A stretch of DNA of 64,000 bases from a virus (IMGVR_UViG_3300028805_000086:31643-95642); one strand, 5' to 3'; counted from the stretch's first letter, positions 9,385 to 63,565 are shown. Notes: generated by a model from the sequence alone, not told the origin. Program-made: numbers and translations.

Positions 9385-9630
9385 ATGTTCTATTTGTTTA
9401 CCAAATTCCCTATAAAGATTAAGGATCAAGGAAAACGAGTTGGCGAAATCTCAAAAATGCTTTCAAAGCATGGATCTAAGATTAAATATACTGAAATATA
9501 CACGATTGGACTTCAAAGTGCAGTGATTAGTTTTCAAAAGAAGCACGGCCTTGAACCAACAGGTGTAGTCGACAAAACTACTTGGAAAGCCCTTCATAAG
9601 AAAATCAAAATGGAAGTAAAAATCGCATAG
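9385..9630 (+). CDS. Stand-alone peptidoglycan-binding domain protein
   Basis: AVISFQKKHGLEPTGVVDKTTWKAL; RBS AAAGGAG. Confidence 0.7.
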   Translation: MFYLFTKFPIKIKDQGKRVGEISKMLSKHGSKIKYTEIYTIGLQSAVISFQKKHGLEPTGVVDKTTWKALHKKIKMEVKIA

Positions 9631-9663
9631 GAAACACCTTCTTTAATGAAGGAGGTGTCTATT

Positions 9664-12600
9664 ATGACATTAGAGAGAGCAATCGAGTTGTTGAAGATTG
9701 AACAGGCTTGTGTTGAGCGCAATACTAAAGGATGTGATAGGAATTGCGCAAAATGTGATCTTGTTCAAAAAGATTGGGAATTGCTAGACATGTATCAATA
9801 TGTCATAGACAAAATATCTGGTGATATTTATAAGGCCGTCGTTCGGTGAACACGGCTTTATTTTTTTCTCGCATGATCAACATGTTTATTAATGGAAGGA
9901 ACTATATAAAAAAAAGGAGGTTTTATCTATGTTTACAACAATTATGATTACGACATTTACTGTTATAGGAATTGCCACTACATACAAGAAAGTGGTAGAC
10001 AAAACGACAAAAATGGCGAATGCATATTTAAAGTATAGAAAAGAAAATTCTGATAAATAATCCTTCCAAAAGAGAGTCAAACATAGACTCTCTTTTTTGC
10101 CTCGCACGATCAACATGGCTATTAATGAAAGGAAGGTGTTAAAAAATGAAGATGGAAAAAATAATTAAAAGAATGAAGAAAGAGTTAGAAAGAAGAGAAA
10201 GGAAGACTAAAAAACTGGAAAACCAACTGGATTCACTTCTGGCTGAAGCTATGAGAATTACAGAATACGGCTTTAAGGAAGAAAAAAAGGAGGTTACTAA
10301 AGTGTAAAGGGCTTTGCCCTTTCTCTTTTTCTCAAACATGGACTATATTTTTTCGCATATGAAACATGTTTATTAATGGAACCTATAAAATATAAGGAGG
10401 TATCTTTTATGTTCACAAAGTTTTGCAGTGTTGTAGGTGCAATAGTGGTAGGAGCTATTGGTGGAATACTGTTAGTAGGAGTTATGGACAAAGTAGAGAT
10501 GGTGTACCTTAAGTTTACAGGTGAAAAGAAGAAAAATGTAAAATTAGAAGAAAAATAAATGATAAAAAGCAGGCAAAACATGTCCTGCTTTTTTTTCGCA
10601 TGCCGAACATTTGTATTAATGGAAGATCTTATGATCTTACTAAAAACATTAAAGGAGAAATAAACATGAAAGAATTATTAGTAAGACCGATATTCAAGAC
10701 TCATGGGTTTGAGTCTGGCAAGGAGATTACGGAAGAAGAATTTGAGAATCTTAAAGAAGAGTTTATTTCTATGCATAATTGTTTTGCTCGTTTAACTAAT
10801 CCATTGATGGATAAAATTAATGAATCATGGGCGAATTATGAAGAGATTGAGGAGATGTCGAAGATAATAAATGTTTCATCATCGCTCGATCAGATACGTA
10901 AGGCTATGGAAATTAATGATAATACAAGATATTGTGATTGGGTAAAAAAGTGGTATGACGAGGTATGTAAGGAAATGGAACGGCTTCCGGATATAAAGAA
11001 GTTAAATATTAGACCGTATATCTTTATTGAAGATGAGAATCCAATTCTTGGAGCTCGGTTGAAGCAAAATGAAAATTGGTGGTTTGAAATGTTTTTAAAA
11101 ATGATCGAATAAGAAAATGGCGGTTGAAACATACCGCCAATATTTTTCGCATATGAAACACTTTATATAATGAAAGGAGGGCAAATAATATGCCAGAGAA
11201 AAAGACGTTTAAAGATTTTATTAAAGGATGGAAGGACAAGGAATCTATCAAAGACAAAATCAAAAGAGGTTTTCGTAAAGGAAAAGAAAAACTGGTTAAC
11301 ACTGTAAAGTGGATCAAAGAGAATCCGCAAGAAGCTGCGATTTACGCTTCTATGATTGCCGGTCTAACTGGCGTTTTAAAGAAAGGCCTTAGGCATGTGA
11401 ATCTGAAGCAGGAGCAGCGTATGAAAGATCGGTATATCTATGATTTTAGCAATAGGTGTTATCTTGAGACAAGAAGAAAACTGAATAGGAATGATGTAGT
11501 AAGTATTAATAGGCTTCGTCGCGAACATCCAGGAATGAAGATGAGTGAAGCTCTGGAATACTTAAATTTGCTCAAGTAACAAATAAAGCGGTTGAAACAT
11601 ACCGCTTTAATTTTTTGAAAATAGGTCCAAATGACTGGATAAATGTGGTGAATTATCATTATTGACCCGCGTAAGAAACACGGTTATTAATGGAATAAGA
11701 ACCAAAGAAAGGTTATGTAATGATAGACCCGCGTCTATCGATAATTGCAAGTGCGGACTTGCGACATATCCTTTCTTTTTTTCAAAATGGAAGTAAAAAT
11801 AACCTCGCACCATTAACATGTTTATTAATGGAAGAAGTAAGGATAAACCTTGAAGCGGTCGTATACAGGAATGTATGAATCCGCGCGAAGAAAGTGGATA
11901 AATCAAGGAGGTGTCGTATGCAGACATGCATGAATCACTAGCTTCTAAGTAAAAAGGAGATCTGAAATGATCTAAGGAGAGTTAATAGCTATAACTCGAA
12001 AGCAACACGCCCTTTTTATTTTTTCGCATATGAAACATATTATATAATGAAGGAAAGATTATTCAACCTTAAGACACCAAAGTGTGGGATAGACGATTGA
12101 GATCTATTTGGATTTTAAATCCCCTGAATAATCATAAGTGCTTGCGGAGGCAGCCTTCATTGGCTATGTTACGACTAAGTGTCGTTGGTAAGCTTAAGCA
12201 TGCAGCTTAGCACATGGATTATATTTTTTTCGCATGATCAACATGGATATTAATGGAGTAGAAATATGAAAGGAGAGAACAATTATGTTTTTAATTATAT
12301 TTTGGAGTATAATAGGGATCATAACATTATACGGCTACGTTATTGTAGCAAAAGAATGCGTATGGGAATTATATACTGATCAGCATATGTTTGAGAACAA
12401 TAAAGTGCTGAAAGTAATAATGAGCGTAACGTGGCTTGTTACATTCTGGCCGTTTATGTATGTAATTATTTATAGAGAAATTAAAAAGTGATTTTAATCA
12501 AATATTAAATAATCTACTCCGGAAATAAATCCGGGTAAGGACGAATTAAAAACTCGGATTTATTTTTTTCGCGTATCGAACATATTTATTAATGGAACTA

Positions 12601-13976
12601 AAAATGAAAGGGGATAACAATATGAATGACATGATTGAGCTTCTTGAAACATTGAACGAAGGATGTGATGTGCTTAGTAAAGCACGTGATCAATATGATA
12701 AAATTAAGGATAATTTGATTTTTACAACTGAAGATGGTAAAAAATTTTTAGATCTTTTGGGATCAATGATCAAAAATACTAATCTAGGGACATTACAGTT
12801 CGGAATTATGATGCTAAAGTATCAATTATACAATAAAAATAAATAATTTTGGTTCCATAAAAGCGTACACAAAACGTGTTACGCTTTTTTTTCGCATGAT
12901 CAACATGGATATTAATGGATAGAATCCAAATAAAATAGAAAGGATGAGGAAAAATGACAGCAAAAGAGTATCTTGACAAACTTGATAAAATTGAAGAAAA
13001 GAGGTGCAAAAAATTAGCTCTCGATGGGTACAAGTGGTTCTATATTGGGTATATGTTTGGAAGCGGATATATCCATGATGAAACAAACAACCAAGAAGCT
13101 AAAGAAATGGCAAATGAAATTTTAAAGACGTATAAGGATAATCTTGATGTTATTATGAAAGAATGGATTCTGCCAATAACAAATGAAGAAAATGAGGCAA
13201 AAGTTCTAAAATTATGCGAAATTATTCAAAATCTGAAAGTATAAAATATTAATCGTATAAAGGGCATTTTGCCCTTTTTTTTTTCGCGTATGAAACACTT
13301 TATATAATGAAGGAGGTGGCTTGTATAATGAAAGCTACGGAAGTTGTAAGAAAAGCTATATTTGGAATGTATTCGATAGAAGAATTAAAAGAACAGCAAA
13401 GGACAATATTCCTTAAGGATATCGATGAACAGTATAGTGACTTTGTAATAGACCACATATTTACAGATAAAGGCGATGGCGTGTTCTATTTCATAGTAGG
13501 ACTATATGTTATAGATAAAGGGCATTTTGTTCCTTTGTACATTGGAACAAATATTGGGTATACTTCTAAAGAGCTCGTAAATGAAGCAGCTCGAGTTATA
13601 AAAGAAGTCATGAAAAGTTTCAAAAAATAAAGAAAATGCCCACAAAACGTGGGCTCTTATTTTTTTTCGTTTACGAAACATGCCTTCTAATGAAAATAAT
13701 CATTAGGAGGATTTTAAAATGTATGTGATCATTGAGACTCGTAAACAAAAACGAATGCCTAACGATGATTTTACCGTGCTGTGGACAATTCCATGTCGTG
13801 GTTTTACTAGTAAGGAAACGGCGCAAGATTATTTAAAAGGAAATGAGATTTTTAAGAAATTGTTGTCAAATAGTAAACAGCATTGGAAACTATCTGAAAG
13901 CAGTAATAATCATTTAGTATTCGTTAATGAGTATGGTAGTATTTTAATGGATTACATGATAAAACCTAAGGAGTAA
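9664..13976 (+). other. Array of single-gene units, part 1 (small hypothetical/membrane proteins)
   Basis: ORFs 9664-9849, 9929-10060, 10146-10307, 10409-10558, 10666-11112, 11190-11579, 12285-12491, 12622-12846, 12954-13244, 13328-13630, 13719-13976. Each has the motif and an RBS upstream and usually a hairpin/T-tract downstream. Confidence 0.8.
11692..11782 (+). ncRNA. Candidate small RNA: three-way junction with complementary loops CCGC/GCGG
   Basis: Motif at 11668, no ORF. Hairpins GATAGAC-CCGC-GTCTATC and GCAAGT-GCGG-ACTTGC lie within a closing stem followed by poly-T. Confidence 0.55.
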
Positions 13977-14096: not shown

Positions 14097-15230
14097 ATGG
14101 AACTTCAAGATATTTATGATTTATTGGAATCGCACCTTGGCAATGGAATATTAAACCGCTCAAACGAGAAAATGAAAAGAGTTAAACTTCCGATTCCAAA
14201 GGAATATGGTGGCGGATGGGCAACTGGCGATACCACAGAAGATGCTATCCGCAACATGATTAATCGTTTAAATCTGAAAATTAAAAAAGAAACGCCGTTA
14301 TTTTCTGATTATGCTAGCAAATGGTTAGAGATAAAGAAAGGCGAGGAACGATCGGAATCAACAATTAAGAACTATGAATTCATACTCGAAACTCGCCTTA
14401 AACCATTTTTCGAAAATAAGAAAATTAATGAGATTACAGCCGATGATGTACAGCTATATTTTAACAGTATAATAGATCTCAGCAAGAGTATGAGCGTGCA
14501 AAGTAAAGCAATACTCAGTGGAATCTTCGAAAGAGCAGATCGTAATGGTCTTGTTGACAGAAATATTATGAAATACAAGTATCAGACTAGCTCTAAAACT
14601 GGTGAGAAAGTAGTTCTCCAGGATGATGAACTCATAAATGTTATTGATAAGCTCGAAGATTTGTTATCGACAGGCGACGTACGAGACTATCTATACTTCT
14701 GCTTTTTGTGTTTTACAGCGCTTCGAAGAGGGGAAATTCTGGGTCTTAAATGGGCAGATATCGACTTTGATAACGATTTGATTTACGTGAATCGCAATGT
14801 TACGTTTCCAAATGGCGAAAATAATTATCGAATTGGCAAGCCTAAAGATGGTAGTTCTGGCATTGTGCATCTTCAAAGTGGATTAAAAGATCATATTCTC
14901 AGTTATAAAGGTTCTTCTAAAGAGTACATCATATATAATAGGAAAGAATTCAAAATGGAACCAATAACCAGGAGTATGTTTTCTAAAATGTGGTATAGAT
15001 GCCAGAAAGTTCTGGATCTTAAAGGTGCAACGTCACATAGTTTCAGGGCGTCGTATGCTACGATGATGAATGCGCATTGTGATCACATTGATCCTAAGGC
15101 TTTACAGGGAGCTTTACGACATAAAACGCCAGATTTGGCTATTAAAGTCTATACGAAAGAGAATCATGATAAAACCAGAGCTGCTGAGAAAGAATATGAT
15201 GATTGGCTTAAGCGAAATTCCGCACTCTGA
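14097..15230 (+). CDS. int: Tyrosine recombinase (phage integrase)
   Basis: ALRRGEILGLKWADIDF (R), PKDG (K), HSFR (HxxR), LRHKTPDLAIKVY (H, Y); RBS GGGGAG precedes ATG 14097. Confidence 0.92.
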   Translation: MELQDIYDLLESHLGNGILNRSNEKMKRVKLPIPKEYGGGWATGDTTEDAIRNMINRLNLKIKKETPLFSDYASKWLEIKKGEERSESTIKNYEFILETRLKPFFENKKINEITADDVQLYFNSIIDLSKSMSVQSKAILSGIFERADRNGLVDRNIMKYKYQTSSKTGEKVVLQDDELINVIDKLEDLLSTGDVRDYLYFCFLCFTALRRGEILGLKWADIDFDNDLIYVNRNVTFPNGENNYRIGKPKDGSSGIVHLQSGLKDHILSYKGSSKEYIIYNRKEFKMEPITRSMFSKMWYRCQKVLDLKGATSHSFRASYATMMNAHCDHIDPKALQGALRHKTPDLAIKVYTKENHDKTRAAEKEYDDWLKRNSAL

Positions 15231-15263
15231 ACACGCCTCTTAATGAAAGGAGGCGAATACGCC

Positions 15264-15656: not shown

Positions 15657-15761
15657 TTTCTTTTGGAAGATCGAACACCGGTCTTCCTTTTTCGCGCAAG
15701 AAACACCTCTTATAATGAAGAAACCGTAGGTTTCTAATATTATAATAGGAGGTATCTAAAA

Positions 15762-16479: not shown

Positions 16480-19400
16480 ATGAAGAAGGTTTATTATATT
16501 CTGTGGTTGATTGCTAGTTTTAAACTCGGTTTAGCTATCGGTGATATGCAAATTGAGGAACTTAAGAAAAGAATAAGTGAACTTGAGAAACGTAAAGAAG
16601 AAAAGAAAGAAATAATTAAACGACTTAAGGAAATGATTGCTAGATATCGAATTGATTGCGCATAAAAATAGGTATTGAAAAAGATTGCCCACAAAACGTG
16701 GGCTTTCTTTTTTCGCATCCAAAACACGGCTAATAATGGGAAACCAATAAATAATTTAAGGAGGAATCTAAAAATGGATACTCAGAAAGCTAAGAGAATT
16801 GTGGCAGGTTGTCTTATGGTGACCAACGTGGCACTGGCGGTTATTAATATTGCTAGCGTCAGATTGGCATTGAAAGAAAGCGAAGAAAAGCAGATCGAAG
16901 CTGACACTAAGTTTAATGAGTTTTTGGGATTTTTGGAAAATAAATTCGATACAAGGTTTCCCAAACAGGAATAAAAGATTGCCCGCAAAACGCGGGCTTT
17001 CTTTTTTCGCACTTTAAACATTGCGATATATGGAATGATATTTTAAAGGAGGTTTTAATATGGCTAAAACTAAAATGTTGGGTTCATTCATTATTTGTGG
17101 TGTATACGTGGCTGCAATATGTTGGTATATGCACTATTTAAAAAAAGTAATGAATCCGGTAAAAACTTTGGCTGAACCAATCGAAAGAAAGGAGCAAAAG
17201 AAAAAAATATCGGCCCAAAATAAAGAAAGAGCTAGAATAAAAGAGGCAAAAAGAAGGCTGTTGGAATGCGAAAAAGCTTTAAATAGGCTTAAACATAATG
17301 CTGAGATCGAAGGAAAAGGAAAAACAGTATTAGAATTTATTAATTTTGTTGAAGAGAATGATGATCTTCGACAGATTGTAAATGAGAATGCTATTATCCT
17401 AAAAGATCTTGGTAAGAACAAGAAGGAGTTTTGAGTATTCTGCAGTAAGAGCTATGAAAAACATGGCTCTTTCTTTTTCGCATATGAAACACACTTATTA
17501 ATGGTAAACCATAAAATAAAAAAGAAGGTATTTTTATGTTTAAAAAGCTTAAGGAATTAATAAGAAAGGATAAGATTTTGAACGAAAAGATAACAAATAT
17601 GGTTAATGAAACAAAAGAAGGAACTATGGAACTGTTTAAAAGTACTAAGAAATTAGAATATCAGAATGGGATTCTTGCTGAAATTCATCAGGATCTTGAT
17701 GAAAATTATTATGGAGTAGAGTCTTATGATGCAGAAAAGAATGATGATAAAAAACTTGAAATGATGAGGAAAGATATAGAGACATTGACTCGTATTCAAG
17801 ATAAATTATATGAATGCGGAATAAGCAAAAAACCTCCACAATTTAGAAATTTCGAAGAATTTGATAAGTTTATGCAGGGTGATGAACCTTTAAGATTGTA
17901 ATATCTTATTACGAGCTATGGAAACATAGCTCTTTCTTTTTTGTCTAAAAATGACCTCGCACGATCAACATGTATATTAATGGAAAGGAAGAACCAAAAA
18001 TAAAGGAGGAATTGATTATGTTTAGGGAAATGGCAAAAATGATTAAGACTGTGTTCTACCTGGCAGGAGCTGCGATTATTATTACAGCAGCGATTGCATT
18101 GGCAGGCGTTGTCTAATCAGAAAACACACAAAAACAAATCTACTAAAATTGAATACGGAAAATTCCAATCCGGAAATAAATCCGGGTAAGGACGAATTAA
18201 AAACTCGGATTTATTTTTTTTTTCGCATGATCAACATGTTTATTAATGGAAACTAAATATTATTTAAAGGAGGATACAAATTATGGGTACTATTGGAAAG
18301 TATGTCTACAAATATGCAATCGAAATTAATGGGGATTTTATGAAAGGGATGGTATATACTAATACCAGGGAAGAAGCTTATGAGCGGCTTCCAATTGAGA
18401 TGCAGATAGGTTTGGAAAAGCTTAATAAAGCTTATCCTTGGGATAAGCATTATATCATTACAGAAAAACGGAATCTATTAGGAATTGACGGTCTTGTAGA
18501 TACTTATCCGGCGTGTGCTGATTATTATTACCCTTGGATAAGTTATAAGGTTAGAAAAGTAAGGGTACCCGTGTAAACAACACGGGTTCTTTTTTTTCGC
18601 ACATCAAACATGTTGCTAAATAGGAGGTGATAAATGTGTGCATCGAAAATAAAATTGATCCGCACCATGGAATTCCATATTCTAGGTATATCATTAGCTG
18701 GTTGAAAGTCGTGGTTTATGGCGATGTAAATGAACGACTTGAAAACGTAGGGGCTTTTATCCATTATGGTAAAGACAAAAGTAAAAAATGGTTAGATTAT
18801 GATCGCATTTTTTACGGAAATGGTAAATTTACTGAGTGGCTTAAGTCTTTAGGATTCAATGACGATGAGTGTCGTGAGATTCGCGAATTGGCCACTAGTG
18901 GTAAACTGGAGTTGGAAGATTCAGTACGGAATTTTTTAAAAGAGAACACATAAACCGTATAATATAGACTATCGTCAAAGGACATAGTCTATATTTTTTC
19001 AAAATGGAAGTAAAAACCATCTCGCGTGATCAACATGCTTATTAATGGAAACTATACTACTATTTTAAGGGAGGCAAATCTTATGGAAATGTATGGACTT
19101 ATGTTAATCTTGGGTTTGGTAACCGGTTTATATCTAGGAAAAATCGGTGAGAACCGACGGTTAAGAAAGAACCAGCATAATCCTGTAGGAAACCAAAATT
19201 GGAAAGGAGGTAGTAACCAGAAGAAGAGGGCTGCATAAGTGAATATTATGGAGAGACTGCAAAACGCAGCCTCTCTTCTTTTTTTCGCACTTCGAACATG
19301 CCTTTAAATAGGGAAGGTTCCCTAATATATATTTTAAGGAGGTTCATTATGAACTGGGTACATGTGGTAATGCTGGCAGTAGGTTTATTTATGGGACTGT

Positions 19401-20330
19401 ATTTTAGTAAAACATTACAGTTCCGAAGGATGGAGAAAGAAAAAGAAGCCATACGTTATCACTATCAGAAAAAGTTTAATGAACGACATGATAATAAGAA
19501 TGGAAAGGTGGTGAACTTCCCGAACACAAATAAGCAGCAAAAGGCTGCAAGATAATTTATTAAAGAGGTCGCAAAACGCGGCCTCATTTTTTTTTTTCGC
19601 ATACGGAACACGCTGCATAATGGGAGTAATCCTAATATATTTTAAGGAGGAATCTGAAATGTGGATTCTGTATGTAGCAATTTACTTAATTGGCTGTTAT
19701 GTGGCAATGCGTCTATGCACTAAACAAGAGGTAGAAAATTGTAAACGACTAGAAAAATATGGAAACGAAGCAATTAGAATGTATTACGAAAATAAGCATT
19801 ACATCGCTTCTCCGGAAAGTACAAAATTACTCGTTGGCAGTGCAATAGCAATAATCATTGTTATAATTATGTTATGGCCAATAGTATTCAGTATTACGGC
19901 AGTGTGGAATTATATTGATTTTAGAATAACTGAGAAAAAGTTTAAAAAGGATTAACTTCTATAAAAGAGGGTCTAACATAGACTCTCTTTTTTCGCATCA
20001 TTAACACGGCCTTTAATGGGAATACTATTAACCCTAAAAATAAAGGAGGAAGTAAAAATGAAAAAGGGTTTTATTATCGGAGTAGTATGCACTATGTTGG
20101 TAGTTATTGGAGTAATGTTTTACTGTAATTGGTATAATTCAGTTGAACATCTAGGAATTAAAATAGATTATGATGATCCATGGATGTTTAATGGAAGTAT
20201 ACATTATTACACTGAATGGATTGACGAACAAGGGAGTAAACATGGGCAATGGATATCCGAGGATAAAGCATTGTTCATGGTAGAGCAACGAAAAAAAGGG
20301 CAAATAGTATATCCTGGAAAATGGAACTAA
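16480..20330 (+). other. Array of single-gene units, part 2 (mostly small single-TM or coiled-coil proteins)
   Basis: ORFs 16480-16665, 16774-16974, 17060-17434, 17536-17901, 18018-18116, 18283-18576, 18627-18953, 19083-19238, 19349-19555, 19659-19955, 20058-20330. All but the first are preceded by the motif; many have an N-terminal hydrophobic helix. Confidence 0.8.
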
Positions 20331-20451
20331 AAGACCGAGCCGCAAAATTAACAGCGGCTCTTTCTTTTTTCGCACAAAAAACACAGATGTATATGGGAGG
20401 CAATATAAACGTTGCCTCTTAATTTTTTAATAATAAAAAGGAGGAAACAAA

Positions 20452-22194: not shown

Positions 22195-22278
22195 TCGCAC
22201 AAGAAACATGGATTTAAATAGGAAGAGATGACAAAACGTCGTCTCTTCTATTTTTTCAAAATGAAAGGAGAAAGGATT

Positions 22279-23720: not shown

Positions 23721-23796
23721 TGTCGCACGAGAAACACGTGTATAAATAGGAGATAACGAAACGTTGTCTCTTTAATTTTTTACAAATTGGAGGAGA

Positions 23797-27122: not shown

Positions 27123-27615
27123 GACTTTTATTTATGGTCATATTGACCGCGTACTAAACACGTTTAGTAATGAAGGAACAATATAGTTCTTTCGGTCAAA
27201 AATACAAAAAAGAGAAAAGGAGTAATGAACTATGGAAAGCAAGGTATTAAGTTATGTGTATTTTAAAGGGATTCAAACGGGATATAAAGACGTGACAGTA
27301 CCTGACCCCGGACGGTATATGAAAAATCTACATAGGATTGAGGCAAATGGATTTTTTAAATATATCGATTATGCGGGCCAGTTTACCGCAACGATCGAAG
27401 GAAAACCCGGTATTTATTATGGATATAGCATTATTGCTAATAGAGAAATTACAAAAGAAATATTAAATTTGATCGACTATGACTATTCAGAGTCCTTCGA
27501 TATGGAAACTAATGAAAAATTAGATAAAGATTTAGGAACATTTGATGACTATTTGAAAGAAATAGCAGACGAAATTTGGTCTGAAGTGACCAGAAAATAA
27601 AAGGAGGAAATTACT

Positions 27616-28098: not shown

Positions 28099-28201
28099 TG
28101 GGATCCGGTATAAAGGTGAGTGCGGTTTGTGCTTGCCTTTATATTTTTTCGCGTAAGGAACATTTCTCTATATGAGAAATGAAAGAAAGGAGGTGAAAGC
28201 A

Positions 28202-28534: not shown

Positions 28535-28636
28535 GGCAGGCAAGCATGCCTCCACCTTTTTTTCGCGTAAGGAACACGCACATAAATAGAAAGGAATAAA
28601 AACGTTCCTTTTATATTTTTGAAAGGAGAAAGGACC

Positions 28637-29140: not shown

Positions 29141-30490
29141 AAATTCGAAAGGAGAACTATATTTATGAATCTTATTAAATGCAACAAATCAGATTGTTTT
29201 CAGAACTATTGTGGAACTAGCTGTAGACTTCTCAATGCGCCTATAACTGATCATGCATGTCCGTTTTATAAAACAGAAGCAGAAGTTGATAATGGGCGCA
29301 TCAAAACACACAATATACTTCTTGAAAAAGGTCGTAAAGATCTGATAGAGCAATATGAATACAATCCTTACAGGAGGGGGAGCTGGTGATGGAAAACTGG
29401 CATCCTGGAACTCAACCGCCTTCCGCTGGTGGGAAATATTTAGTTCTTATTAAGCTAACGAAGAGCGTTAATAATGAGTTTGATATTGCTGAATATTATC
29501 CGGCACTAGATAAATGGAGACCGTTAACTTACATTGGAACGGTTATATGGTGGACCAAATTGCCAAGTAAAAGGCAGTTTGAACTTGCTCGCATCGCGAA
29601 CACTTCTATAAATGAGAGAAAGCCAATTGAAAGGAGAAGAGTATGAAAAAGAAGTGGCAAAGGATTAAAGGTTTTTTTGGTTTTTTGAAGACCAAAATCA
29701 AAAAAATAAAGATTTTCACTTGGCGAACTGATATGAGAGAATTGCAGGACAATATTAAGAAATTGCATGCAGCGAGGAAACAGGTTGAAAAAGGAAGCGA
29801 CACATATGAGAAATTACAATGCGAATTAAAAACGGAATATGAACTGCTTAAGAAATTGAAGGAAAGTAAGCATTCAGTTCCGCCGCAAATCACAGCAACT
29901 CTCTGTGTGGTTGGAACAATAGCATTCTTCGCTATATGCTTAGACCAGGAGAGTCCCAAGGCTCTTAAGTTGGCCCAATTTGTGGTTAAATTATTTAAAT
30001 TAGGAGGTTGAGAAAAGAAAAAACTTTAATGGCTATTTATATTTGGATGACTTTCTCTCAATTGAGGACAAGGTAAAAACATGCCTTGTCCTCTTTTTAT
30101 ATTTTTAGAAAGGACAATATTTATGAGCAGAGCACTTAGATGTGATCAATGCAAAAACTTTTTTGATCCGCTTGAATCTGGTGTTTTCACAAATGAAAGG
30201 CTTCATATAACAAATTTGGAAATAATGGACCCTGTTGGAACAAAAAATAATCAATTTGTAAAGCAACTTACAAATCTTGATTTTTGTCCTCAGTGTTCAA
30301 ATAAACTTTTTAAATGGTTTGCTGGAAAAGCAAAAATAGTGGAGGATGAACAAAATGATGAGCATTATGCGGAATGATTCCGGCCATTACGAAATGTATA
30401 TCGATGATAAATTTTATGGTAGTTACGACACGGTTAGTGATGCTGCACGAGATTACGACGAATATATCGAGAATAAGGAGGACACACCCG

Positions 30491-32265: not shown

Positions 32266-33172
32266 CGGTATTAATGCAGAATTATGTTTAAATTTAATCG
32301 ACGAGCAAAAGAACAGATTAGATAAATTAGGAATGCAGTTTCATCAATTACAAACTGAACGAGATAAGCTTCGGGATCAGATTTATCGCGAAGATATTTT
32401 TGACCCCGCGAGGCGAAAAGAAATGGAAGATCTTGGAATAGAATTTAGTGAATTCTAAGTTCGCATCATGAACATGCTCCTTAATGGAACCAATAAATTA
32501 AGGAGGCAAGTAAAATGAAAAAGTTTAGTTGGACGATAGCAAAATTTATCGCTGCTGAGTTATTCACAAAAGGGCTTATAAAAGTGATGAAAATGGTGAT
32601 TATGTGGACAAGAGGAGCTCTTGCAGAATATGAGGCGCAAATCAATGAAATCGGCAACAAACAAAACGGAGATGAAGCCGCTTAATTAGTGGTGAAAAAG
32701 AAAAGACCAAGTAAGGAATGGGAATAAACTTGGTCTTTTACTTTTTCGCAGAAAGGAGGGGATTTAAATTGGCCAGTAAATTGAATACTGACCGCAAACC
32801 GGTAAAGCGGAATTTAGTAGGAAATCGTATCATTTATATTTGTCCGAAATGTCGACAAATTCTTCATATTCAGACTAAATATAAGAAAAACTTGTGTATG
32901 AAATGCGGTCAGTATTTAAACTGGGAAGAAATTGAACGACAGTGGTGGGTAGAATATATTATTTGTCATGATCGTGATGAGGCTAAATACTGTGCTGAGA
33001 TCTATAAAAAATGTACTGGCTATGATTGGGTGAATCCTGATATTTTTCTTGATCAATCAATTGCTTTCAACAAGAAATGGCCTAAGGAAATGATGTTTCC
33101 ATTCATGGAAAAGTCAGGGTACGGACGTTTTATGCGGCAAACTGCTAAAGTTGGATTTGAAAGGAGTAAATA

Positions 33173-43415: not shown

Positions 43416-43946
43416 ATGAAAATAGAACTTGTAAGATATCCTAAAGAGGAAGATCTAATTTGGATGAAACAATGTACACTTGGAACGGCGGGGAAGGACA
43501 CGAGTTCTCCCCCGTCTTCTAATTTAATAAGGAAATTATTGGCGGCAAGACATAGTCCAATACGTGAACTTACGTTTTCGTATGTAATCCGTGATATTCC
43601 ATATTGGGTGTCGGTGCATCTGGTGCGCCATCATGTGGGCTTTCAGCCTTATGTCGAGAGTCAACGTAATGATCGCCAGAGTAAGTACGATCGCAACAAA
43701 GCACCCCAGGATGCTCCGATCACAATGCGTGTTACGCTTAACGCAGAAGCATTGCTTACACTGGCGAACAAGCGTCTTTGCATGAAAGCTTCTCCTGAAA
43801 CAAGAGAAGTTGTTAAAGAAATGTGCAGACTGGCTGAGGAAAAAGTTCCAGAATTGCATGAATTTCTAGTTCCAATGTGCGATTATCACGGAGGAATTTG
43901 CTATGAAGTGCAATCTTGTGGCCGATCTAAGCACTTCGCGTCTTAA
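43416..43946 (+). CDS. thyX: FAD-dependent thymidylate synthase (ThyX-like)
   Basis: HSPIRE...VSVHLVRHH...VESQR...KRLC..AS.ETR motifs. Confidence 0.75.
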   Translation: MKIELVRYPKEEDLIWMKQCTLGTAGKDTSSPPSSNLIRKLLAARHSPIRELTFSYVIRDIPYWVSVHLVRHHVGFQPYVESQRNDRQSKYDRNKAPQDAPITMRVTLNAEALLTLANKRLCMKASPETREVVKEMCRLAEEKVPELHEFLVPMCDYHGGICYEVQSCGRSKHFAS

Positions 43947-43960
43947 ACATGGTTATTAAT

Positions 43961-44146
43961 GGGAGAGCAAAGTTAATTTGGGAGTGTATAAACCCGACGG
44001 AGGGCTGCTGAGCTCCGGCAAAATGCAGTTTTTAAAACTATCCGTCTTAATAGCTTAATGGAGGTGAGAAGATCGAGAGATCATTCGAACAAGAGCGCCT
44101 GAAAAGGAGACGCCGGTTCGAAGCCGGCAAAATTAACATGCTCTCT
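43961..44146 (+). ncRNA. Candidate ~185-nt structured ncRNA with T-arm-like hairpin
   Basis: Starts at motif 43937. 5' GAGAGCA..GTTAATTT pairs with 3' AAATTAAC.TGCTCTC; internal GACGGA/TCCGTC and GCCGG-TTCGAAG-CCGGC; no ORF. Confidence 0.6.
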
Positions 44147-45433
44147 GATATTTTTGAAAGGAGAAAAATAACCATGAAAAAGGAAAACTGGTTGGCACCA
44201 AACGCAGAGTTGTACATTAAGGCTACAAAAATCTACGAAGATGTAGCGGAAAAGTTAACGGAAGTCAGAGAATATGATCCGGAAGAAGCTTATGACGATC
44301 CTCGCTTGTTTATGTATATACGAATGTATCCGGAAAAATTTGAACCTTCAATAATCGGAAGAGAACTCGACAAAACAGTAGTACTTGTATTGGCTATGGA
44401 TAAGCTTGGAGCGAATATATTGGAAATGTCAAAAGCGGTTAAGCATATGATGGTTCTTTCGGCGTGTCAACATGTTATGCTTAATTGGCTAAAAAGCAGA
44501 AAAGATAATGATATTGAGTATCTGATGAATAAATACTTTTATGAAGCTTCTTTATGTTTTCTTGGTAGTTTCAATCAATAAACACTGGAATACTCTGTAA
44601 AATGCCGCGTCGGAAACATGGCCTTTGATAGGAAGGAGGTTATGTAAAATGACCGGAGTATATTTGACGATTGAGGACAAGAATAGCCTGGTGCTATTCC
44701 TCAAAGGAGCTGCGCGGAGTGGATATTTGCACAAACTTGATCTAAGGGAGGTGAATAACTGGATTAATGATGTGCAATTCCCAGTATGCATTCCTATCGA
44801 TGTGAACGGCATCGTGGATGTAGGAAGGAATCCAATTGTCAAAAGTATATTCGGAAAAGTTCTGGATAAAGGGCTTACTGAATATATCAGGAAAGCTATG
44901 GAGGCTGGGTAAACCAGTCTTCATATTTTTTGCAAAAAGAAAGGAGCGATTTTATGGAAGATTCCACGACAAAAATCATGAAAGACGGGGCTATTGCAAA
45001 TCAGTACAGCGTGCTTAAGCAATTGAAAGACTATTTATGGGTTATGTTCGAAAAAGAAGATGAAGACAAAGGCATTTATATTGACGATGAGCAAACAATA
45101 CGTGATATGTGCATGACTGTTATTGACACCGCCGATGCATTGAAAGGCTATGGAATTATTAGCGAGGCTGCAGATTCTGTCGACGAATATGGCCAAATTG
45201 GTCAGGTTAATTTCTTTAAACTGATATATAAAAACGGGAGAAGAGACAATGACGGGAATAGCAATTGATTTATTTACAGTTGTTTTGATGGTGGTTTTGT
45301 CGTTTATTTGTGGATATTCTGCCGGCCACAAGTACGGACGAATGGAGGTAAGGAAAAGTCTTAACGACTTATCTTCAACTATCACTAAATTGGCAGAAGG
45401 TCAGAAAAACGAAAAGGAGCATAAATTTTAATT

Positions 45434-46240: not shown

Positions 46241-48386
46241 AAGACAACGACGTGGTGGGCAATCGATAATCAAAAGTCCACCACGTTTTCTATTGATCAA
46301 TTAGATGGATATTTGAGAGGTATTAACGATGAAAAGATCTTCACCCGAAAAAGGCACAATGATAATTAATGGCCATACTATGGCATTTGAAATTATTCGC
46401 AGTGAAAAACCGAGTGCTTTTGGCGTATATCAGAGTCGTATTTATGAAATGAATATCTTCCGTGATGGTACTTTGACAGCCGATTTCAATAAGAAATGGA
46501 TAAAAGTTCCTAATGCGGATGATGAGGAGACTCCATTGGCAATTGGGCATCTTATAGATGCTTATGGCAAAGAAAAGATCAAAATCAGAAAGGAGAAATA
46601 ACCATGAGTGAATTTGTACAGGTTATGACAATGAAGGACTATTTCAACAAGTATGCAATCGAGGGTCTGGTTAAGAATGGAGCCAGCAAGACCGCTGTCA
46701 AGGAACAGTTGTTGGATGCGTTCAGACGTGAAACGTTTAATACTGCTTCCATTATGGTTGGAAGCAAGGTATTCGGTGACAAATATGAGGCGAGCGATAA
46801 GGATAAGCAGAAGCTCAACAATATTCTCAAGAACACCAATAAAAAGTGGAAGAGTCTTGTCAAGGAATTCGCTAAATTCAAAGAGACCTGTGGATTTCTT
46901 ACTGAAGATGATTTTATGAAGTATATGAATGACCGAACAGAGTATCTTACCAAAGCAAATAATACAGAGTACGTAAGTGACGAAGATATTGCTAAGGAGG
47001 AAACTGAAGATGGATCCGATGAAGCCCGTTGATATAAGGCCTAATCATTTATGGAGCGAACGTATAACAGCAATAGATGAAAATGGTAAGCCTATTGCCG
47101 GACGGTATAAATGGGATTCTGGACCTCATCTGACTCCTGAACAGGAGCGCTGTGCACAACTGCTTGCTATGGATCGGGTTGTTGATTTCTTTATGAGTAG
47201 TTTTAAGGATATTACTCCTGAAGATATTGTCAAAAAGAAGAATGAACTGCTCACAGAAGCCCGCAAAGAAGTATCCGAAGGGAAACTTGGGTACGGACGT
47301 ATTTCGAGTAATGCGCAGGAACGTTATCATGCGGCATTACTGATAGCTAAAAAGGATCGCACATAAAACACAGCTATTAATGGAACTACTGTATTAACAG
47401 TAAGTATTTATATTTTTGAAAGGAGTAAAAAAAATGGAAGACAAGAATCAGAATCAGGAACCGGAAGAATTTGAAATGGATGAGGAACTTACAGCCTTCG
47501 GAAAAATCAAGAAGGCAGCTAAGACTGCTTGGAAGTTTGGGAAGTATGTTTTAACTGCTGCAATTGGTTGGGGAGGCAAAGCACTATTCGATCGGTTTAC
47601 AGGCAAAGATGATGACGATGAAGACGAAGGGTCTTCTGAAACGGAAGAGACTTCAGAAGAATAAGATTGATATTTACGGTAGTTCCGCCGTAAAGAGTAT
47701 GCGTTAAAAGGAACGTATACTCTTTATTTTTCACCGAGCATTTTCTGGATTAAGGGTCGTCAGTGAGCGCCTATCCGGAAGGTATGCCAAAATCTGAAAG
47801 GAGAGGACCGATGTTAGATAAATTTACACAGCGATTGATGGATTCTTTGCATCGAAGTGTAAGGAAAACCGTCATTCCGATGAGGGAGGTGCTTAGGCAG
47901 AATGTTAATGCGCAAATGGATATTGGGAGTAAACTGCTGAAATTTGGCACAATGATTCTGTTATTCTTAGGGATAACAAAAATGAATCAATTAGAGGACC
48001 GCCCGAAAAAACTCGAGCAACCGACAATTATTATAAATAATTATCTTAATGATAAACGTAAAAAGGAGGAGGATGCATGAACCTCGAATTCGATGAAGAT
48101 GCTTTAATGGAATTGAAAAGCTATCTTACACCAAAGAAAGCGATAAAAGCAGTGCTTGGAACTTTAGTTTCTTTAGGAGCTACTGCTGCTGTAATCGCTA
48201 TGTTCAGGAATCCAATAAAAGCATCAAAAGGTATTATTAAGTTATTAATGGTTATGGGCGTTTTTATGCTCGGATGCAAAGCCGGAGATATTGCAGAGGA
48301 GCACTGCAAACAGACAATTGATAATCTTGCTGAAACTGCAGATGATATTAAAAATGAACTAAAATTGGAAGGAGAAAATACGAATA

Positions 48387-59687: not shown

Positions 59688-59846
59688 AGCCTCGACTATC
59701 GTGAGTAGTTCTCCGTTTTTGCAGACCCCGCACGAAAAACATGCATAGTAATGGAAAGAGAAGACTTTGTTTTACGCAAATTAAAGCATTGCCTTCTCTT
59801 TTTTGCGCATTATGCGCATGCAATGATTTGTTTTTGAAAAGGAGGG

Positions 59847-60152
59847 ATGCCTATGGGCAAGGAAAGTGAATTCCAAGCACGATTGATTCGAAGACTGAAG
59901 ATCACTTTTCCAGGTTGCATCGTATTAAAGAATGATGCTACTTATATTCAAGGGTTTCCCGATTTAACAATACTTTTTAAAAACAAATGGGCGTTGCTCG
60001 AATGCAAACGGAAGAATGAAGCTCACAAACAACCGAATCAGGAATACTACGTTACGAAGGGAAATGAAATGTCCTTTGCTGCTTTTATTTCCCCGGACAA
60101 TGAGGAGGAAGTTTTAAGTGATCTTCAACAAGCATTTGGAGCTGGAGGGTAA
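59847..60152 (+). CDS. VRR-NUC-like PD-(D/E)xK nuclease
   Basis: KESEFQ...GFPDL...LECK...PNQ. Confidence 0.8.
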   Translation: MPMGKESEFQARLIRRLKITFPGCIVLKNDATYIQGFPDLTILFKNKWALLECKRKNEAHKQPNQEYYVTKGNEMSFAAFISPDNEEEVLSDLQQAFGAGG

Positions 60153-60756
60153 ACATGCTTTATTAAGTCCTAGTAAACATTATTGGATAAACTATGACGA
60201 TGAAGCATTGATAAAGAGTTATATTTCAAGCTATGCTACTGACATAGGAACTTTAGTGCACGACTACGCTAAAGATAGAATTCGATATCGTTTACCTTTG
60301 GAAGATTGCGCTCCGGAAAAGAATGCATTGCTGGCTTTCTTACTTAGAAACTACATACCATTCATTGCTATAGACTTGGACCGATTATTTTACAATCTTG
60401 TTCCATATGTTAACGATGCTATTGGTTTCAAATTGGAAAGCGAAGTAGTGCTCAAATATTCAGATCTTTGCTTTGGCACAGCTGATGCAATTGGCGTGCG
60501 AAGAGGCATGCTCCGGATTCATGATCTGAAGACCGGAGTATCGCCAGCTTCGATGGACCAGTTGCTTCTGTATGCCGGTTTATTTTTCCATGAATACAAA
60601 AGGGATTATCGACCGACAACTATGAAAGTAGAGTTACGAATTTATCAGAATCAAGAAGTGTTGATTCATAATCCGACAACTGAAGAGATAAAAGGAGTCA
60701 TGGAGAAAATCTCCCATGGTGACATGGTGATTAATAAACGAATAGTGGAGGTCTGA
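60118..60756 (+). CDS. PD-(D/E)xK exonuclease (DUF2800/Cas4-like)
   Basis: HALLSPS, GTLVH, FGTADAI, IHDLKTG, QLLLYA. Confidence 0.8.
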   Translation: MIFNKHLELEGKHALLSPSKHYWINYDDEALIKSYISSYATDIGTLVHDYAKDRIRYRLPLEDCAPEKNALLAFLLRNYIPFIAIDLDRLFYNLVPYVNDAIGFKLESEVVLKYSDLCFGTADAIGVRRGMLRIHDLKTGVSPASMDQLLLYAGLFFHEYKRDYRPTTMKVELRIYQNQEVLIHNPTTEEIKGVMEKISHGDMVINKRIVEV

Positions 60757-60760
60757 TGTC

Positions 60761-63565
60761 ATGAAAGAATCGGAACAAAACGGGTACCGCGCTGAATCAT
60801 TGTTATATGATGACAGCGAGTACAAAGAAGATTATGGTACACCAAGACATTCTGGTAGGTATCCATGGGGAAGCGGGGACAATCCTTATCAGCGTTATGC
60901 TGATTTTCTTGCAAATTATGACAAGCTAAAAGATAAAGGACTCTCCCAAAAAGAGATCGCTAAAAGCATGAAGATGACAACCTCGGTTCTTCGTGCAAAG
61001 ATTTCATATGCAAATGATGAATTGAGAAAAGAGCAAGCTACATTTGCTATGAAATTGAAAGACAAAGGTTATTCTAATTCAGCAATTGCTAAGCGGATGG
61101 ATCTTCCTAGTGAAAGTTCTGTTAGAAGTTTGCTGAAACCTGTTAGCGATCAACGTGCTAGACAGACCGAAAATTTGATGAATGTTTTAAAGAAGACCGT
61201 CGATGAAGGTAAATATGTAGATGTTGGCGGTGGCACTGAGTTGCGGCTTAATGTAAGTGAACAAAAATTGAAGAATGCTTGTATTCTTCTTGAAGAACAA
61301 GGATATAAGATTCATTCGTTCAAAGTTCAACAAGCTGGAACGCCTTATAAAACGACGTTGAAAATCCTCACGAAAGATGACGTTCCCGAAACAGATGTTA
61401 GGGCTCATAAAGGAGACGTTGTTATCCCGAATTATTATAGTGAGGATCATGGTTATACTTTAAAAGAAGTAGAAAAACCGGTTGCTATTGATGGCAGCCG
61501 TATTTTTGTTCGGTATAAAGATGAAGGCGGAAAAGAACGTGATGGCACGATCGAAATCCGTAGAAATGTAGAAGATTTGGATTTGCATAATGCACTGTAT
61601 GCTCAGGTTCGGATTGCTGTAAAAGAAGATCCCAAAGCAACAGAAGGATCACATTATTTGAAAGGCGTTGCTTTATACTCGGACGATATTCCGAAGGGCT
61701 ACGATGTGGTTGTTAATTCTAATAAGCCTAGAGGAACAGACTTATTCGGTAGTTCGTCTGATACATCTGTATTTAAGCCGATTAAACCCGATGCAGATCC
61801 TAATAATCCTTTTGGTGCCACAATAAAAGATGATAAAGATCTTATTAGAGCCCAACGTCATTACATAGGCTCTGATGGAAAAGAGCATCTTAGTGCATTG
61901 AATATCGTTAACGAAGAAGGCAATTGGGGCGAATGGGCTAAAACTCTTTCAAGTCAATTCTTGGGTAAACAGAGACCTCCGCTTATTCGTACTCAGCTTA
62001 AAGAGGCTTACGATATTCGTAAAGATGAATTTGATGAGATTAATTCTCTTACCAATGCGGCAGTTAAACAGAAGCTTATGGCTTCTTTTGCTGATGATTG
62101 TGATGCCGCAGCAGTTCATCTGAAAGGCGCAAGTATGCCTCGCCAAAGGAGTCAGCTCATTCTTCCTATGCCTTGGCTTAAAGAAGATGAGTGTTATGCT
62201 CCTAATTATCATGATGGAGAAAAGGTAGTTCTTATTCGTTATCCGCATGCTGGGTTATTTGAGATTCCAGAACTTACTGTAAATAACCGAGATGCAAAAG
62301 CTAAGAGTCTTTTGAAACATCCTGATGGAACCGATGCTCGAGATGCTATCGGCATTCATCCTGCAGCTGCTCAAAAGTTATCTGGTGCAGACTTTGATGG
62401 TGATACTGTGCTTGTTATCCCGAATAACGATCATCGAGTTGTTTCCAGACCTCTTACCGAAACCCTTAAGAATTTTGATACTGATATGTATCAATTACCA
62501 GAATCTGCTCCTAAAGTAGATAAAGCTCATGGCTTTAATAAACAACGCGAAATGGGCGAAGTATCAAATCTTATTACAGATATGACAATCAAAGGTGCAA
62601 CAATGCCTGAAATCGAAAGAGCTGTTAAGCATTCAATGGTGGTTATTGATGCAGAAAAACATCATTTGGATTGGCGTAGATCAGCTTTAGAAAATGGTAT
62701 TGCCGAACTTAAGACTAAATATCAAGGCGGTCCAAGAGCTGGTGCTTCAACTCTTATGAGCCGTGCTAAAGGCCAGGCCCATCCATTAGAGCGTAAACTT
62801 ATTACTAATCCTAATCTCATGACTGCTGAAGAACGAGCTCGATATTTGAATGGTGAGAAAGTCTATAGAGACACTGGAAGAACTCATATTAATAAAGACG
62901 GTAAGATTGTTCAGACTAAAATAAATTCTAATAAGATGACAGAGGCATTTGTTCAAGGTAAAGATGCATTTGCGTTATCATCAGGCAGCATTCAAGAAAC
63001 GATCTATGCGAATTTTGCTAATCGACTTAAGAATCTTGGCAATGAGGCTCGTAAAGTTTCTATATTAACAAAGCCTGAAGAATACAGTCCATCTGCCGCT
63101 AAAGCTTATGCTGTAGAAGTAAATTCTCTTAAGAAGAAGCTATATTTAGCTGAACTTAATAGACCTCTTGAACGTAAAGCACAGCTTCTTACTTCACAGA
63201 AATTGAGAGCATACATGCAGTCTAATCCGGATCTTGATCATGATGAGATTAAGAAACTAAAAGGTAGATTCATTAAAGAATCTAGAGATGCTATTGGAGC
63301 TGGAAAGGCTATCATTGACATTAAGCCAAGAGAATGGGAAGCTATTCAAGCACATGCTATCTCGAATAATACACTTAAAAAGATCCTTAATAATAGCGAT
63401 ATGGATCAGGTTAAGCAATTAGCTATGCCTAGATCCTCGCCGATGATGTCTACTGCTAAAGTAACTAGAGCTCGCAACATGCTTAAGCAAGGTCGTACGA
63501 CTGCTGAAGTCGCTGAAGCACTTGACGTGTCTGTAAGCACTCTTCAGAAAGCCCTTGACACTTAA
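60761..63565 (+). CDS. Putative single-chain two-barrel (double-psi beta-barrel) RNA polymerase with terminal HTH domains
   Basis: QVRI, YLKG, RYPH and LSGADFDGD (DxDGD at 62390-62404). HTH-like segments at the N-terminus (GLSQKEIAKSM, GYSNSAIAKRM) and C-terminus (TTAEVAEALDVSVSTL). Confidence 0.78.
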   Translation: MKESEQNGYRAESLLYDDSEYKEDYGTPRHSGRYPWGSGDNPYQRYADFLANYDKLKDKGLSQKEIAKSMKMTTSVLRAKISYANDELRKEQATFAMKLKDKGYSNSAIAKRMDLPSESSVRSLLKPVSDQRARQTENLMNVLKKTVDEGKYVDVGGGTELRLNVSEQKLKNACILLEEQGYKIHSFKVQQAGTPYKTTLKILTKDDVPETDVRAHKGDVVIPNYYSEDHGYTLKEVEKPVAIDGSRIFVRYKDEGGKERDGTIEIRRNVEDLDLHNALYAQVRIAVKEDPKATEGSHYLKGVALYSDDIPKGYDVVVNSNKPRGTDLFGSSSDTSVFKPIKPDADPNNPFGATIKDDKDLIRAQRHYIGSDGKEHLSALNIVNEEGNWGEWAKTLSSQFLGKQRPPLIRTQLKEAYDIRKDEFDEINSLTNAAVKQKLMASFADDCDAAAVHLKGASMPRQRSQLILPMPWLKEDECYAPNYHDGEKVVLIRYPHAGLFEIPELTVNNRDAKAKSLLKHPDGTDARDAIGIHPAAAQKLSGADFDGDTVLVIPNNDHRVVSRPLTETLKNFDTDMYQLPESAPKVDKAHGFNKQREMGEVSNLITDMTIKGATMPEIERAVKHSMVVIDAEKHHLDWRRSALENGIAELKTKYQGGPRAGASTLMSRAKGQAHPLERKLITNPNLMTAEERARYLNGEKVYRDTGRTHINKDGKIVQTKINSNKMTEAFVQGKDAFALSSGSIQETIYANFANRLKNLGNEARKVSILTKPEEYSPSAAKAYAVEVNSLKKKLYLAELNRPLERKAQLLTSQKLRAYMQSNPDLDHDEIKKLKGRFIKESRDAIGAGKAIIDIKPREWEAIQAHAISNNTLKKILNNSDMDQVKQLAMPRSSPMMSTAKVTRARNMLKQGRTTAEVAEALDVSVSTLQKALDT

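Follow-up and report, generated by a model that had tools for sequence, protein, structure and literature searches.

How does a phage that appears to encode its own RNA polymerase mark the genes that this enzyme is to transcribe? The question is raised by a 64,000-nucleotide stretch of DNA (IMGVR_UViG_3300028805_000086:31643-95642; hereafter the window, to which coordinates refer unless stated otherwise), which covers bases 31643-95642 of a 95,642-bp phage record from IMG/VR that is rated complete by CheckV. Near-identical DNA is present in sheep, cattle and goat gut metagenomes, pointing to a phage of the ruminant gut. The window holds 38 copies of a 26-base signal made of three blocks at fixed spacing and, towards its right end, an open reading frame (ORF; 60761-63565) whose structural model predicts a single-chain two-barrel RNA polymerase with DNA-binding modules at both ends. 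Judged from the sequences alone, the 38 copies are probably the promoters of this phage-encoded enzyme. A model-made first-pass annotation of the same DNA had proposed this pairing of motif and polymerase; the observation itself is confirmed by our analysis, and its interpretation is supported by comparative evidence from related phages.

The repeated motif and its context

The signal had been described as YCGC-N6-AACA-N7-WAATR, recurring at invariant spacing on the + strand only. An exact search of the window recovers this pattern 33 times, in every case on the + strand, compared with 0.02 expected from shuffled sequence; the 95,642-bp genome as a whole adds nothing to these 33, its - strand and its first 41 kb being free of matches. 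Refinement of a profile, begun from a generic seed, yielded 38 + strand sites, of which 27 lie within 9.6-20.4 kb; these are exactly the numbers reported before; the five sites beyond the exact set are those at 13667, 17007, 20370, 28149 and 44605. At the same score threshold the profile gave no match on the - strand and none in ten dinucleotide shuffles, and a refinement run on the - strand itself drifted to a low-information pattern and was rejected. All 38 copies share one ungapped register. The lack of copies noted earlier for the tail and lysis region extends to the full 41 kb of structural and lysis genes. The copies exist where they had been placed, including the one at the head of the nuclease-exonuclease-polymerase operon, with the correction that this copy and the first one start at 59728 and 9623, each one base earlier than annotated.

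The 26-base consensus is tTCGCRY-N4-AACAYG-N5-TAATGgaa, or tttttTCGCRY-N4-AACAYG-N3-wwTAATGgaa in its extended form. With starts at positions 0, 10 and 21, the blocks are spaced by about a helical turn each and therefore lie on one face of the DNA.

In 34 of the 38 copies the motif ends 14-60 nt upstream of the next start codon with a ribosome-binding site (RBS), and in 28 a stable hairpin, mostly followed by a T-run, is found no more than 48 nt upstream, in agreement with the earlier statement that the copies nearly always lie between a terminator and an RBS. Terminator-like sites in 9400-29300 are enriched 4.5-fold (45 observed compared with 10.1 +/- 3.7 expected); sigma-70-like sites in the same interval are not enriched (75 observed compared with 72.4 +/- 8.9 expected). 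The positions of motif, terminators and RBSs thus define a layout in which, from 9.6 kb onward, terminator-motif-RBS-gene cassettes follow one another in series and give way to three long operons that begin at the copies at 32461, 47357 and 59728.

Several copies have further features in their surroundings. A hairpin with a T-run lies directly 3' of the motif and before the next RBS at 20370, 22195, 23723, 28563 and 47357, where it may serve as a promoter-proximal attenuator or as a stabilizing 5' hairpin. The copies at 11805 (to 12285), 12024 (to 12285) and 43936 (to 44174) have no convincing ORF start in the >200 nt that come after them and are possible non-coding RNA cassettes. The string CAAAATGGAAGTAAAAA (cf. 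the 12-mer TCAAAATGGAAG) is located just 5' of several copies, for example at 9600-9622, 11780-11800 and 19000-19020. The loops of the terminator hairpins in 9.6-20.4 kb often read AAAAC or AAACA, as in GCCCACAAAACGTGGGC at 13638, 16687 and 16981 (there GCCCGC...). We make no claim of polymerase-specific terminators, the loop being only loosely echoed in relatives (CTAACAA in the phages Circum and HotFries, GAAA in FP_oengus; see below).

The predicted polymerase

The ORF at 60761-63565 had been singled out by a DxDGD motif preceded by RxP, KG and QxR motifs, all of which are borne out: the metal-binding loop SGADFDGD and the residues Q282, R284, K301, G302, R493 and P495 (QxR, KG and RxP) are invariant in 100 aligned homologs. 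We take the latter six residues to belong to particular barrel elements, an assignment made from general knowledge and not from a residue-level superposition. Pfam recognizes only the helix-turn-helix (HTH) modules, which occur at both ends of the protein (Sigma70_r4 at residues 58-90 and HTH_28 at 96-126; HTH_23, HTH_38 and Sigma70_r4_2 at 901-933) and account for the several HTHs reported before. The fold was examined with an AlphaFold (AF2) model computed on the 100-homolog alignment, which has a predicted local distance difference test score (pLDDT) of 85.7 and a predicted template modelling score (pTM) of 0.78. The top Foldseek match of this model is QDE-1 (E 1e-9), followed by the Thermus phage non-virion polymerases gp62/gp64 (E 1e-6) and, further down, by plant RDR2, P23-45 gp96 and the largest subunits of cellular polymerases (beta-prime and Rpb1). 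The catalytic core superposes on solved two-barrel polymerases, so that the structure prediction upholds the likeness to this class that the first-pass annotation had suggested. Sequence searches of the PDB were less telling. The single protein returned HTH noise only, leaving the fold as the one informative comparison, and a 100-sequence profile gave HTH matches together with a weak match (E 0.27) to the catalytic loop of P23-45 gp96.

In PHROGs the protein is matched over its full length by phrog_4291 ('RNA-dependent RNA polymerase'), and its membership of that family is further indicated by the HTHs at both ends, the right-end location after the VRR-Nuc and exonuclease genes and the small ORF that comes next. 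The family is large, with >8,000 proteins that have words in common and 852 clusters (50% identity) at E <1e-30. Proteins of Arthrobacter, Streptomyces, Gordonia, Faecalibacterium and Lactococcus phages are 41-48% identical to the polymerase described here; among the named genera of the tblastn matches, a list from which two genera are missing, there is no Bacillus phage.

One of the most conserved stretches of the family is the peptide YGT.RHSGRYPWGSG (residues 24-39), which is nevertheless predicted to be disordered and could be a docking or packaging signal. A search for a similar N-terminal 'cargo tag' in other proteins of the genome found none. One 77-kb IMG/VR record holds two paralogs of the polymerase. 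In several IMG/VR records and in Lactococcus phage 1706 the polymerase match is split into two pieces that meet at about residue 680-710 within one long frame, which suggests an insertion near this point.

Conservation in relatives

Six relatives that carry the polymerase were read for the motif by an unbiased dyad count, by direct listing and by per-genome profile refinement: Arthrobacter phage Circum, Streptomyces phage HotFries, Gordonia phage Petito, an oral contig, Faecalibacterium phage FP_oengus and Lactococcus phage 1706. All six display the three blocks in the same register as this phage, making seven lineages (consensus sequences in Table 1). In each of them the motif keeps to the coding strand, and most copies fall among the small genes that come after those for the tail or for lysis. 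The search of the full genome and of relatives that had been recommended as a check therefore finds the same blocks and register across two bacterial phyla. In HotFries, motif discovery by refinement gave nothing at the threshold used, and five copies were identified by reading the intergenic gaps. The blocks vary between lineages (CGCA or CGCG; AACA or TACA; TAATG, TATAGTAG or TTATGG), and the A+T-rich block is followed by a purine-rich stretch (TATAGTAGAAAG in 1706 and TATAATGAGACC in the actinophages).

The profiles can be exchanged between genomes with no retraining. When the Circum profile is applied to both strands here, 27 of the 38 sites are among its top 38 matches, and the profile of this phage recovers eight of nine sites in Circum, ten of 11 in Petito and six of seven in the oral contig. 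Circum and FP_oengus also have a copy at the equivalent place upstream of the nuclease gene. Positions 2910-3020 of FP_oengus contain a motif-tRNA-T-run cassette of ~100 nt, after which comes the next motif copy, and the first base of the tRNA coincides with motif position 26 (ARAGORN, 2935-3006; Rfam tRNA, 2936-3005, 47.9 bits). This single case is consistent with RNA beginning at the purine that follows TTATG/TAATG. Recognition helices and motif variants were inspected for covariation in the seven lineages only, which are too few and are confounded by descent.

The association between motif and polymerase was also examined in IMG/VR by scanning for TTCGC-N6-AACA-N7-TAATG, with the same pattern written backwards as the control; contigs of at least 30 kb were considered, the counts are samples and they hold among the matches listed. 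A polymerase gene is carried by 33 of 42 motif contigs and by none of 29 control contigs (Fisher p = 2.5e-12), and among near-complete records by 17 of 20 and none of 13, respectively. A looser pattern has ~203 matches in the 42 records compared with six for its backwards control, and in each of the 33 records with a polymerase the motif matches share the strand of its gene. Many of the polymerases of these contigs are only 41-50% identical to that of the phage studied here. Because the records were picked for one match and are all relatives, this test ties the motif to the core genes of the lineage and not to the polymerase alone.

Proposed mechanism and alternatives

We propose that the sigma-4-like HTH modules fused to the enzyme, two at the N terminus and one or two at the C terminus in an arrangement conserved across the family, read the motif directly and would dock on TCGCR, WACAYG and TAATG in successive major grooves. 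The A+T-rich third block would then melt, and RNA would start at the purine just after TAATG, at about position 26, and be extended through one small gene or a long operon as far as a hairpin with a U-run. This promoter class would drive all non-structural genes, comprising 27 single-gene cassettes and the three operons that begin at 32461, 47357 and 59728; the polymerase gene belongs to the third. As the copy at 59728 heads the polymerase operon itself, the first enzyme must have another source, and we infer that the first molecules may arrive with the virion. The GenBank label 'structural protein' on orf75 of 1706, a homolog of the polymerase, would fit such delivery, which is the mode of P23-45 gp96 and also of N4 vRNAP and crAss-like gp66. 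The enzyme may also be independent of the host polymerase and of any sigma factor or sigma-like cofactor.

In its strongest form the proposal becomes a self-sufficient module, in which a 934-residue polymerase with its own readers and a three-block promoter needs no cofactor and is carried in the virion, so that early and middle transcription never require the host polymerase. We put this forward tentatively and regard it as doubtful. If true, a host-independent module of this kind would help to account for the presence of one phage lineage in both Actinobacteria and Firmicutes. It would also amount to a compact expression system of the T7 type, orthogonal in Gram-positive bacteria and with variants of specificity provided by nature.

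Several points weigh against the copies being promoters of the phage polymerase. If a polymerase is made from its own promoter only, the initial molecules must be brought in by the virion or produced from a host promoter that was not seen, and the transcription of the structural genes, which contain no copy of the motif, is left without an explanation. The third block reads TATAAT in four relatives (Circum, Petito, HotFries and the oral contig), perfectly so in the actinophages. The co-occurrence in IMG/VR is confounded by common descent, the motif also accompanying the primase-polymerase, the helicase, the nucleases and the phrog_4303 ORF adjoining the polymerase gene. Our literature search brought up no bench test for members of the polymerase family. 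Finally, some contigs of the metatranscriptome start upstream of copies and run across them (15660 and 10587). Other contigs start 12-26 nt past predicted starts (15730, 23775 and 27186) and were not used as evidence, since the contigs are assembled and no start site can be read from them. In the two sheep-gut RNA runs the depth over the region is very uneven (0-63), while the DNA depth is flat at ~19.

Among the alternatives, the one that survives best is that another phage protein reads the motif, either recruiting the host polymerase to it or acting as an obligatory sigma-like subunit of the phage polymerase. The phrog_4303 ORF, which adjoins the polymerase gene in all relatives compared and whose structure model has no recognizable fold, is one candidate. 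The phage also encodes sigma-4-containing proteins, and a second candidate is the protein at 31324-32265, which combines HTH, sigma-4 and alpha-subunit C-terminal (alpha-CTD) domains; it contains the one strong sigma-4 match of the genome and is missing from four relatives that retain the motif. For the phage enzyme YonO the need for factors is likewise open. Sigma region 2 was not found anywhere in the genome, and among the core non-structural genes common to four relatives a transcription fold with DNA-binding modules is seen in the polymerase alone. Overall, we judge a separate reader of the motif to be unlikely.

The motif could instead be a sigma-A/sigma-70 promoter of the host, with the third block as the -10 element and the host polymerase as the transcribing enzyme. 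This is how a similar element has been read in the cluster DJ Gordonia phages Vardy and Conley, the announcements of which describe five copies of a 43-50-bp intergenic motif with TATAAT as a sigma-70 -10 sequence (PMC9671010, PMC10868162) and note neither a link to a phage polymerase nor conservation outside cluster DJ. The copies in the DJ phage Petito, used here in place of the Vardy and Conley sequences, lead us to infer that the DJ motif is the same element. The TATAAT third blocks of the relatives listed above speak for a -10 element as well. In the phage studied here, however, TATAAT occurs in only four of the 38 copies; TAATG is the conserved core and the would-be A-11 position is variable. 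The upstream blocks are located 5-6 and 14 nt from the hexamer instead of the 16-18 nt of sigma-70, with no TGn extension in register, which substantiates the remark in the first-pass annotation that the spacing is too short for sigmaA, and the absence of sigma-70-like enrichment described above argues in the same direction. Moreover, the upstream blocks and their spacing are kept across phages of Actinobacteria, Lactobacillales and Clostridia and hence are not expected of a host-specific promoter, and the motif predicts the presence of the phage polymerase gene. A host sigma-70 promoter is thus very improbable, and the published reading of the DJ-cluster motif is probably wrong. A sporulation-type sigma factor of the host, which had been offered as an alternative to the phage polymerase, is unlikely given that the motif is conserved across phyla. 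That the motif is no promoter at all, and instead acts as DNA in replication, recombination or packaging or makes up the 5' portion of an element at the RNA level, is scarcely credible: it is polar and multi-copy like some replication or recombination signals, but the copies follow terminators and precede RBS-bearing start codons by 14-60 nt, are absent from the coding-dense structural regions and in a relative directly precede the first base of a tRNA in one case.

Relation to known systems

The HTH-flanked 'RdRP-like' family of the actinophage supercluster, Lactococcus phage 1706 and Faecalibacterium phages was predicted in 2021 to have polymerase activity (Koert et al., bioRxiv 10.1101/842583), in a text that names no promoter and from which the word 'promoter' is absent. 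The polymerase described here belongs to that family and matches the supercluster/PHROG 4291 protein in its DxDGD loop, in its HTHs at each terminus and in its right-end genome position. Koert et al. predict activity only, whereas the probable cognate promoter set and its family-wide distribution are added by the present analysis. Promoters are likewise not mentioned in a paper on 46 Arthrobacter phages, and our literature search found no paper that links motif and polymerase. The database labels of the family, 'RNA-dependent RNA polymerase' or 'HTH DNA-binding protein', are likely to understate its function.

Two other phage systems have single-chain enzymes of this fold. Phage P23-45 has two, the non-virion gp64 and the virion gp96, a tape-measure fusion, each of which has its own promoter motif according to passages of the preprint that describes them. 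These passages do not mention fused HTH modules, unlike the HTHs found here; no sequence similarity to gp64 and gp96 is detectable beyond the catalytic loop, and the promoter sequences differ. One enzyme and one motif would serve all non-structural genes in the present phage, compared with two polymerases with a motif each in P23-45. YonO of the Bacillus prophage SPbeta, compared here by its published description, is also a phage-encoded, single-chain, two-barrel, DNA-dependent RNA polymerase. A single start site serves its transcription of the late genes for structure and lysis, with promoter and factor requirements left undefined (YonO paper); this single late start contrasts with the 38 copies described here, none of which is in structural or lysis genes.

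The motif is also similar in design to the promoters of T7, T3 and SP6-type phages, which are compact, rigid, phage-specific elements of ~25 bp in which an A+T-rich block that melts precedes a purine-rich start. The A+T-rich block and purine-rich start resemble the start regions of T7 and SP6 in particular. T7-type polymerases have a Pol I-like right-hand fold, to which the two-barrel fold predicted here is unrelated. Single-chain two-barrel polymerases with promoters of their own are thus already precedented, and the comparisons support as new the proposed fused HTH readers and a probable promoter class that is kept across two host phyla.

How single-chain two-barrel polymerases find their promoters is an open question, for which the motif provides a testable candidate start signal. 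The family occurs in gut, mouth, soil and dairy phages and has culturable members among those of Arthrobacter, Gordonia, Streptomyces and Lactococcus. With a defined 26-bp candidate promoter and its natural variants, in vitro transcription, start mapping and the structure of a promoter complex become feasible. An orthogonal expression tool for Gram-positive hosts is a possible application.

Genome layout and other features

The genome has a G+C content of 38% and carries all its genes on the + strand, in the order packaging, head, tail (with a tape measure of 3,877 aa), lysis, an extended run of small genes, replication and finally, at the right end, the nuclease, the exonuclease and the 934-residue ORF. 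In the circular or prophage order the polymerase operon is directly followed by the structural genes, and no clear terminator was seen after the last ORF. Non-structural genes common to all four relatives compared include those for the primase-polymerase, the helicase, the VRR-Nuc nuclease, the exonuclease, the polymerase and the small ORF. The features of the window are collected in Table 1.

Table 1. Features of the window and motif consensus sequences of the seven lineages. 'Exact' denotes a match to YCGC-N6-AACA-N7-WAATR; bits are scores of the refined profile.
Feature	Position	Strand	Basis or remark
VRR-Nuc-type endonuclease gene	59853..60152	+	kept in 4/4 relatives compared; annotated there as VRR-Nuc or endonuclease
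Cas4/RecB-type exonuclease gene	60118..60756	+	DUF2800; kept in 4/4 relatives compared
Predicted single-chain two-barrel RNA polymerase, 934 aa	60761..63565	+	
Conserved N-terminal peptide, predicted disordered (residues 24-39, GT.RHSGRYPWGSG)	60830..60877	+	G26, S31, G32, G37, G39 invariant; pLDDT <50
Two tandem N-terminal HTH modules (residues 44-126)	60890..61138	+	Pfam, model helices, alignment
Predicted two-barrel catalytic core (residues 239-770)	61475..63070	+	range aligned to RDR2, QDE-1, gp64
Metal-binding loop SGADFDGD (residues 541-548)	62381..62404	+	translation; invariant in 100 homologs, present in 7 lineages
C-terminal HTH modules (residues 856-933)	63326..63559	+	Pfam matches at 901-933; model helices
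Small conserved ORF (phrog_4303), always 3' of polymerase gene	63617..63916	+	
Motif copy	9623..9648	+	exact; 29.4 bits
Motif copy	9869..9894	+	exact; 40.9 bits
Motif copy	10102..10127	+	exact; 39.2 bits
Motif copy	10353..10378	+	exact; 39.6 bits
Motif copy	10596..10621	+	exact; 35.1 bits
Motif copy	11147..11172	+	exact; 31.8 bits
Motif copy	11667..11692	+	exact; 36.6 bits
Motif copy, 455 nt without ORF start	11805..11830	+	exact; 38.0 bits
Motif copy, 236 nt without ORF start	12024..12049	+	exact; 29.1 bits
Motif copy	12230..12255	+	exact; 35.5 bits
Motif copy	12569..12594	+	exact; 33.9 bits
Motif copy	12892..12917	+	exact; 34.9 bits
Motif copy	13284..13309	+	exact; 29.2 bits
Degenerate motif copy	13667..13692	+	profile only; 23.8 bits
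Motif copy	15220..15245	+	exact; 35.0 bits
Motif copy	15692..15717	+	exact; 31.9 bits
Motif copy	16713..16738	+	exact; 36.3 bits
Degenerate motif copy	17007..17032	+	profile only; 26.9 bits
Motif copy	17478..17503	+	exact; 34.7 bits
Motif copy	17957..17982	+	exact; 38.7 bits
Motif copy	18223..18248	+	exact; 39.8 bits
Motif copy, TAAATA variant	18597..18622	+	exact; 32.1 bits
Motif copy	19022..19047	+	exact; 38.2 bits
Motif copy, TAAATA variant	19285..19310	+	exact; 30.0 bits
Motif copy	19597..19622	+	exact; 33.7 bits
Motif copy	19993..20018	+	exact; 34.5 bits
Degenerate motif copy, then hairpin with T-run 20394-20421	20370..20395	+	profile only; 27.0 bits
Motif copy, then hairpin with T-run 22221-22249	22195..22220	+	exact; 31.4 bits
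Motif copy, then hairpin with T-run 23748-23772	23723..23748	+	exact; 31.4 bits
Motif copy	27147..27172	+	exact; 29.8 bits
Degenerate motif copy	28149..28174	+	profile only; 30.0 bits
Motif copy	28563..28588	+	exact; 33.1 bits
Motif copy within ORF end	29589..29614	+	exact; 32.2 bits
Motif copy, head of ~11-kb operon	32461..32486	+	exact; 36.3 bits; gene map
Motif copy	43936..43961	+	exact; 39.8 bits
Degenerate motif copy	44605..44630	+	profile only; 24.2 bits
Motif copy, head of replication operon (primase-polymerase, helicase)	47357..47382	+	exact; 31.7 bits; gene map
Motif copy, head of nuclease/exonuclease/polymerase operon	59728..59753	+	exact; 31.8 bits
Consensus, this phage			tTCGCat....AACAtg..tattAATGgaa
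Consensus, Circum			.tCGCGtaAAtTACA.GGGcTATAATg.aa
Consensus, Petito (11 copies)			ctCGCa...AtTACA.g.ccTATAATGAGACC
Consensus, oral contig			ttCGcg.a.t..gCA.gg..TATAAtGAgACC
Consensus, FP_oengus			GaCGCGAAAAa..CAg..T.CTTTATGgaagg
Consensus, 1706			T.cacAtgTTTTACAta..CTATAGTAGAaag
HotFries			five copies of TCGCAnGTTTTnCnnGnnTTATAATGAGACCCCTAC, read from intergenic gaps

The 313-residue protein at 31324-32265 (+) joins three domains: HTH_17 (residues 5-55), sigma-70 region 4 (117-162, 52.9 bits) and the C-terminal domain of the RNA polymerase alpha subunit (204-266, 55.6 bits). Its possible roles are those of a factor hijacking the host polymerase, a decoy for it or a switch to the late genes. 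Three small ORFs at 21208-21585, 21592-22194 and 44174-44581 (+) resemble internal fragments of the polymerase, none of them with the catalytic loop. Two of the three match phrog_4291 at profile positions 121-222 and 526-633, and the fragment ORFs are also matched in a genome search by polymerase residues 128-209, 568-656 and 596-654. In one sheep-gut metatranscriptome the highest depth (40-63) is reached by contigs over positions 21.4-28.0 kb, a segment that includes a repeat-rich gap at 24.3-24.8 kb and two 360-residue ORFs without Pfam matches, and the depth falls to 0-10 elsewhere in the region.

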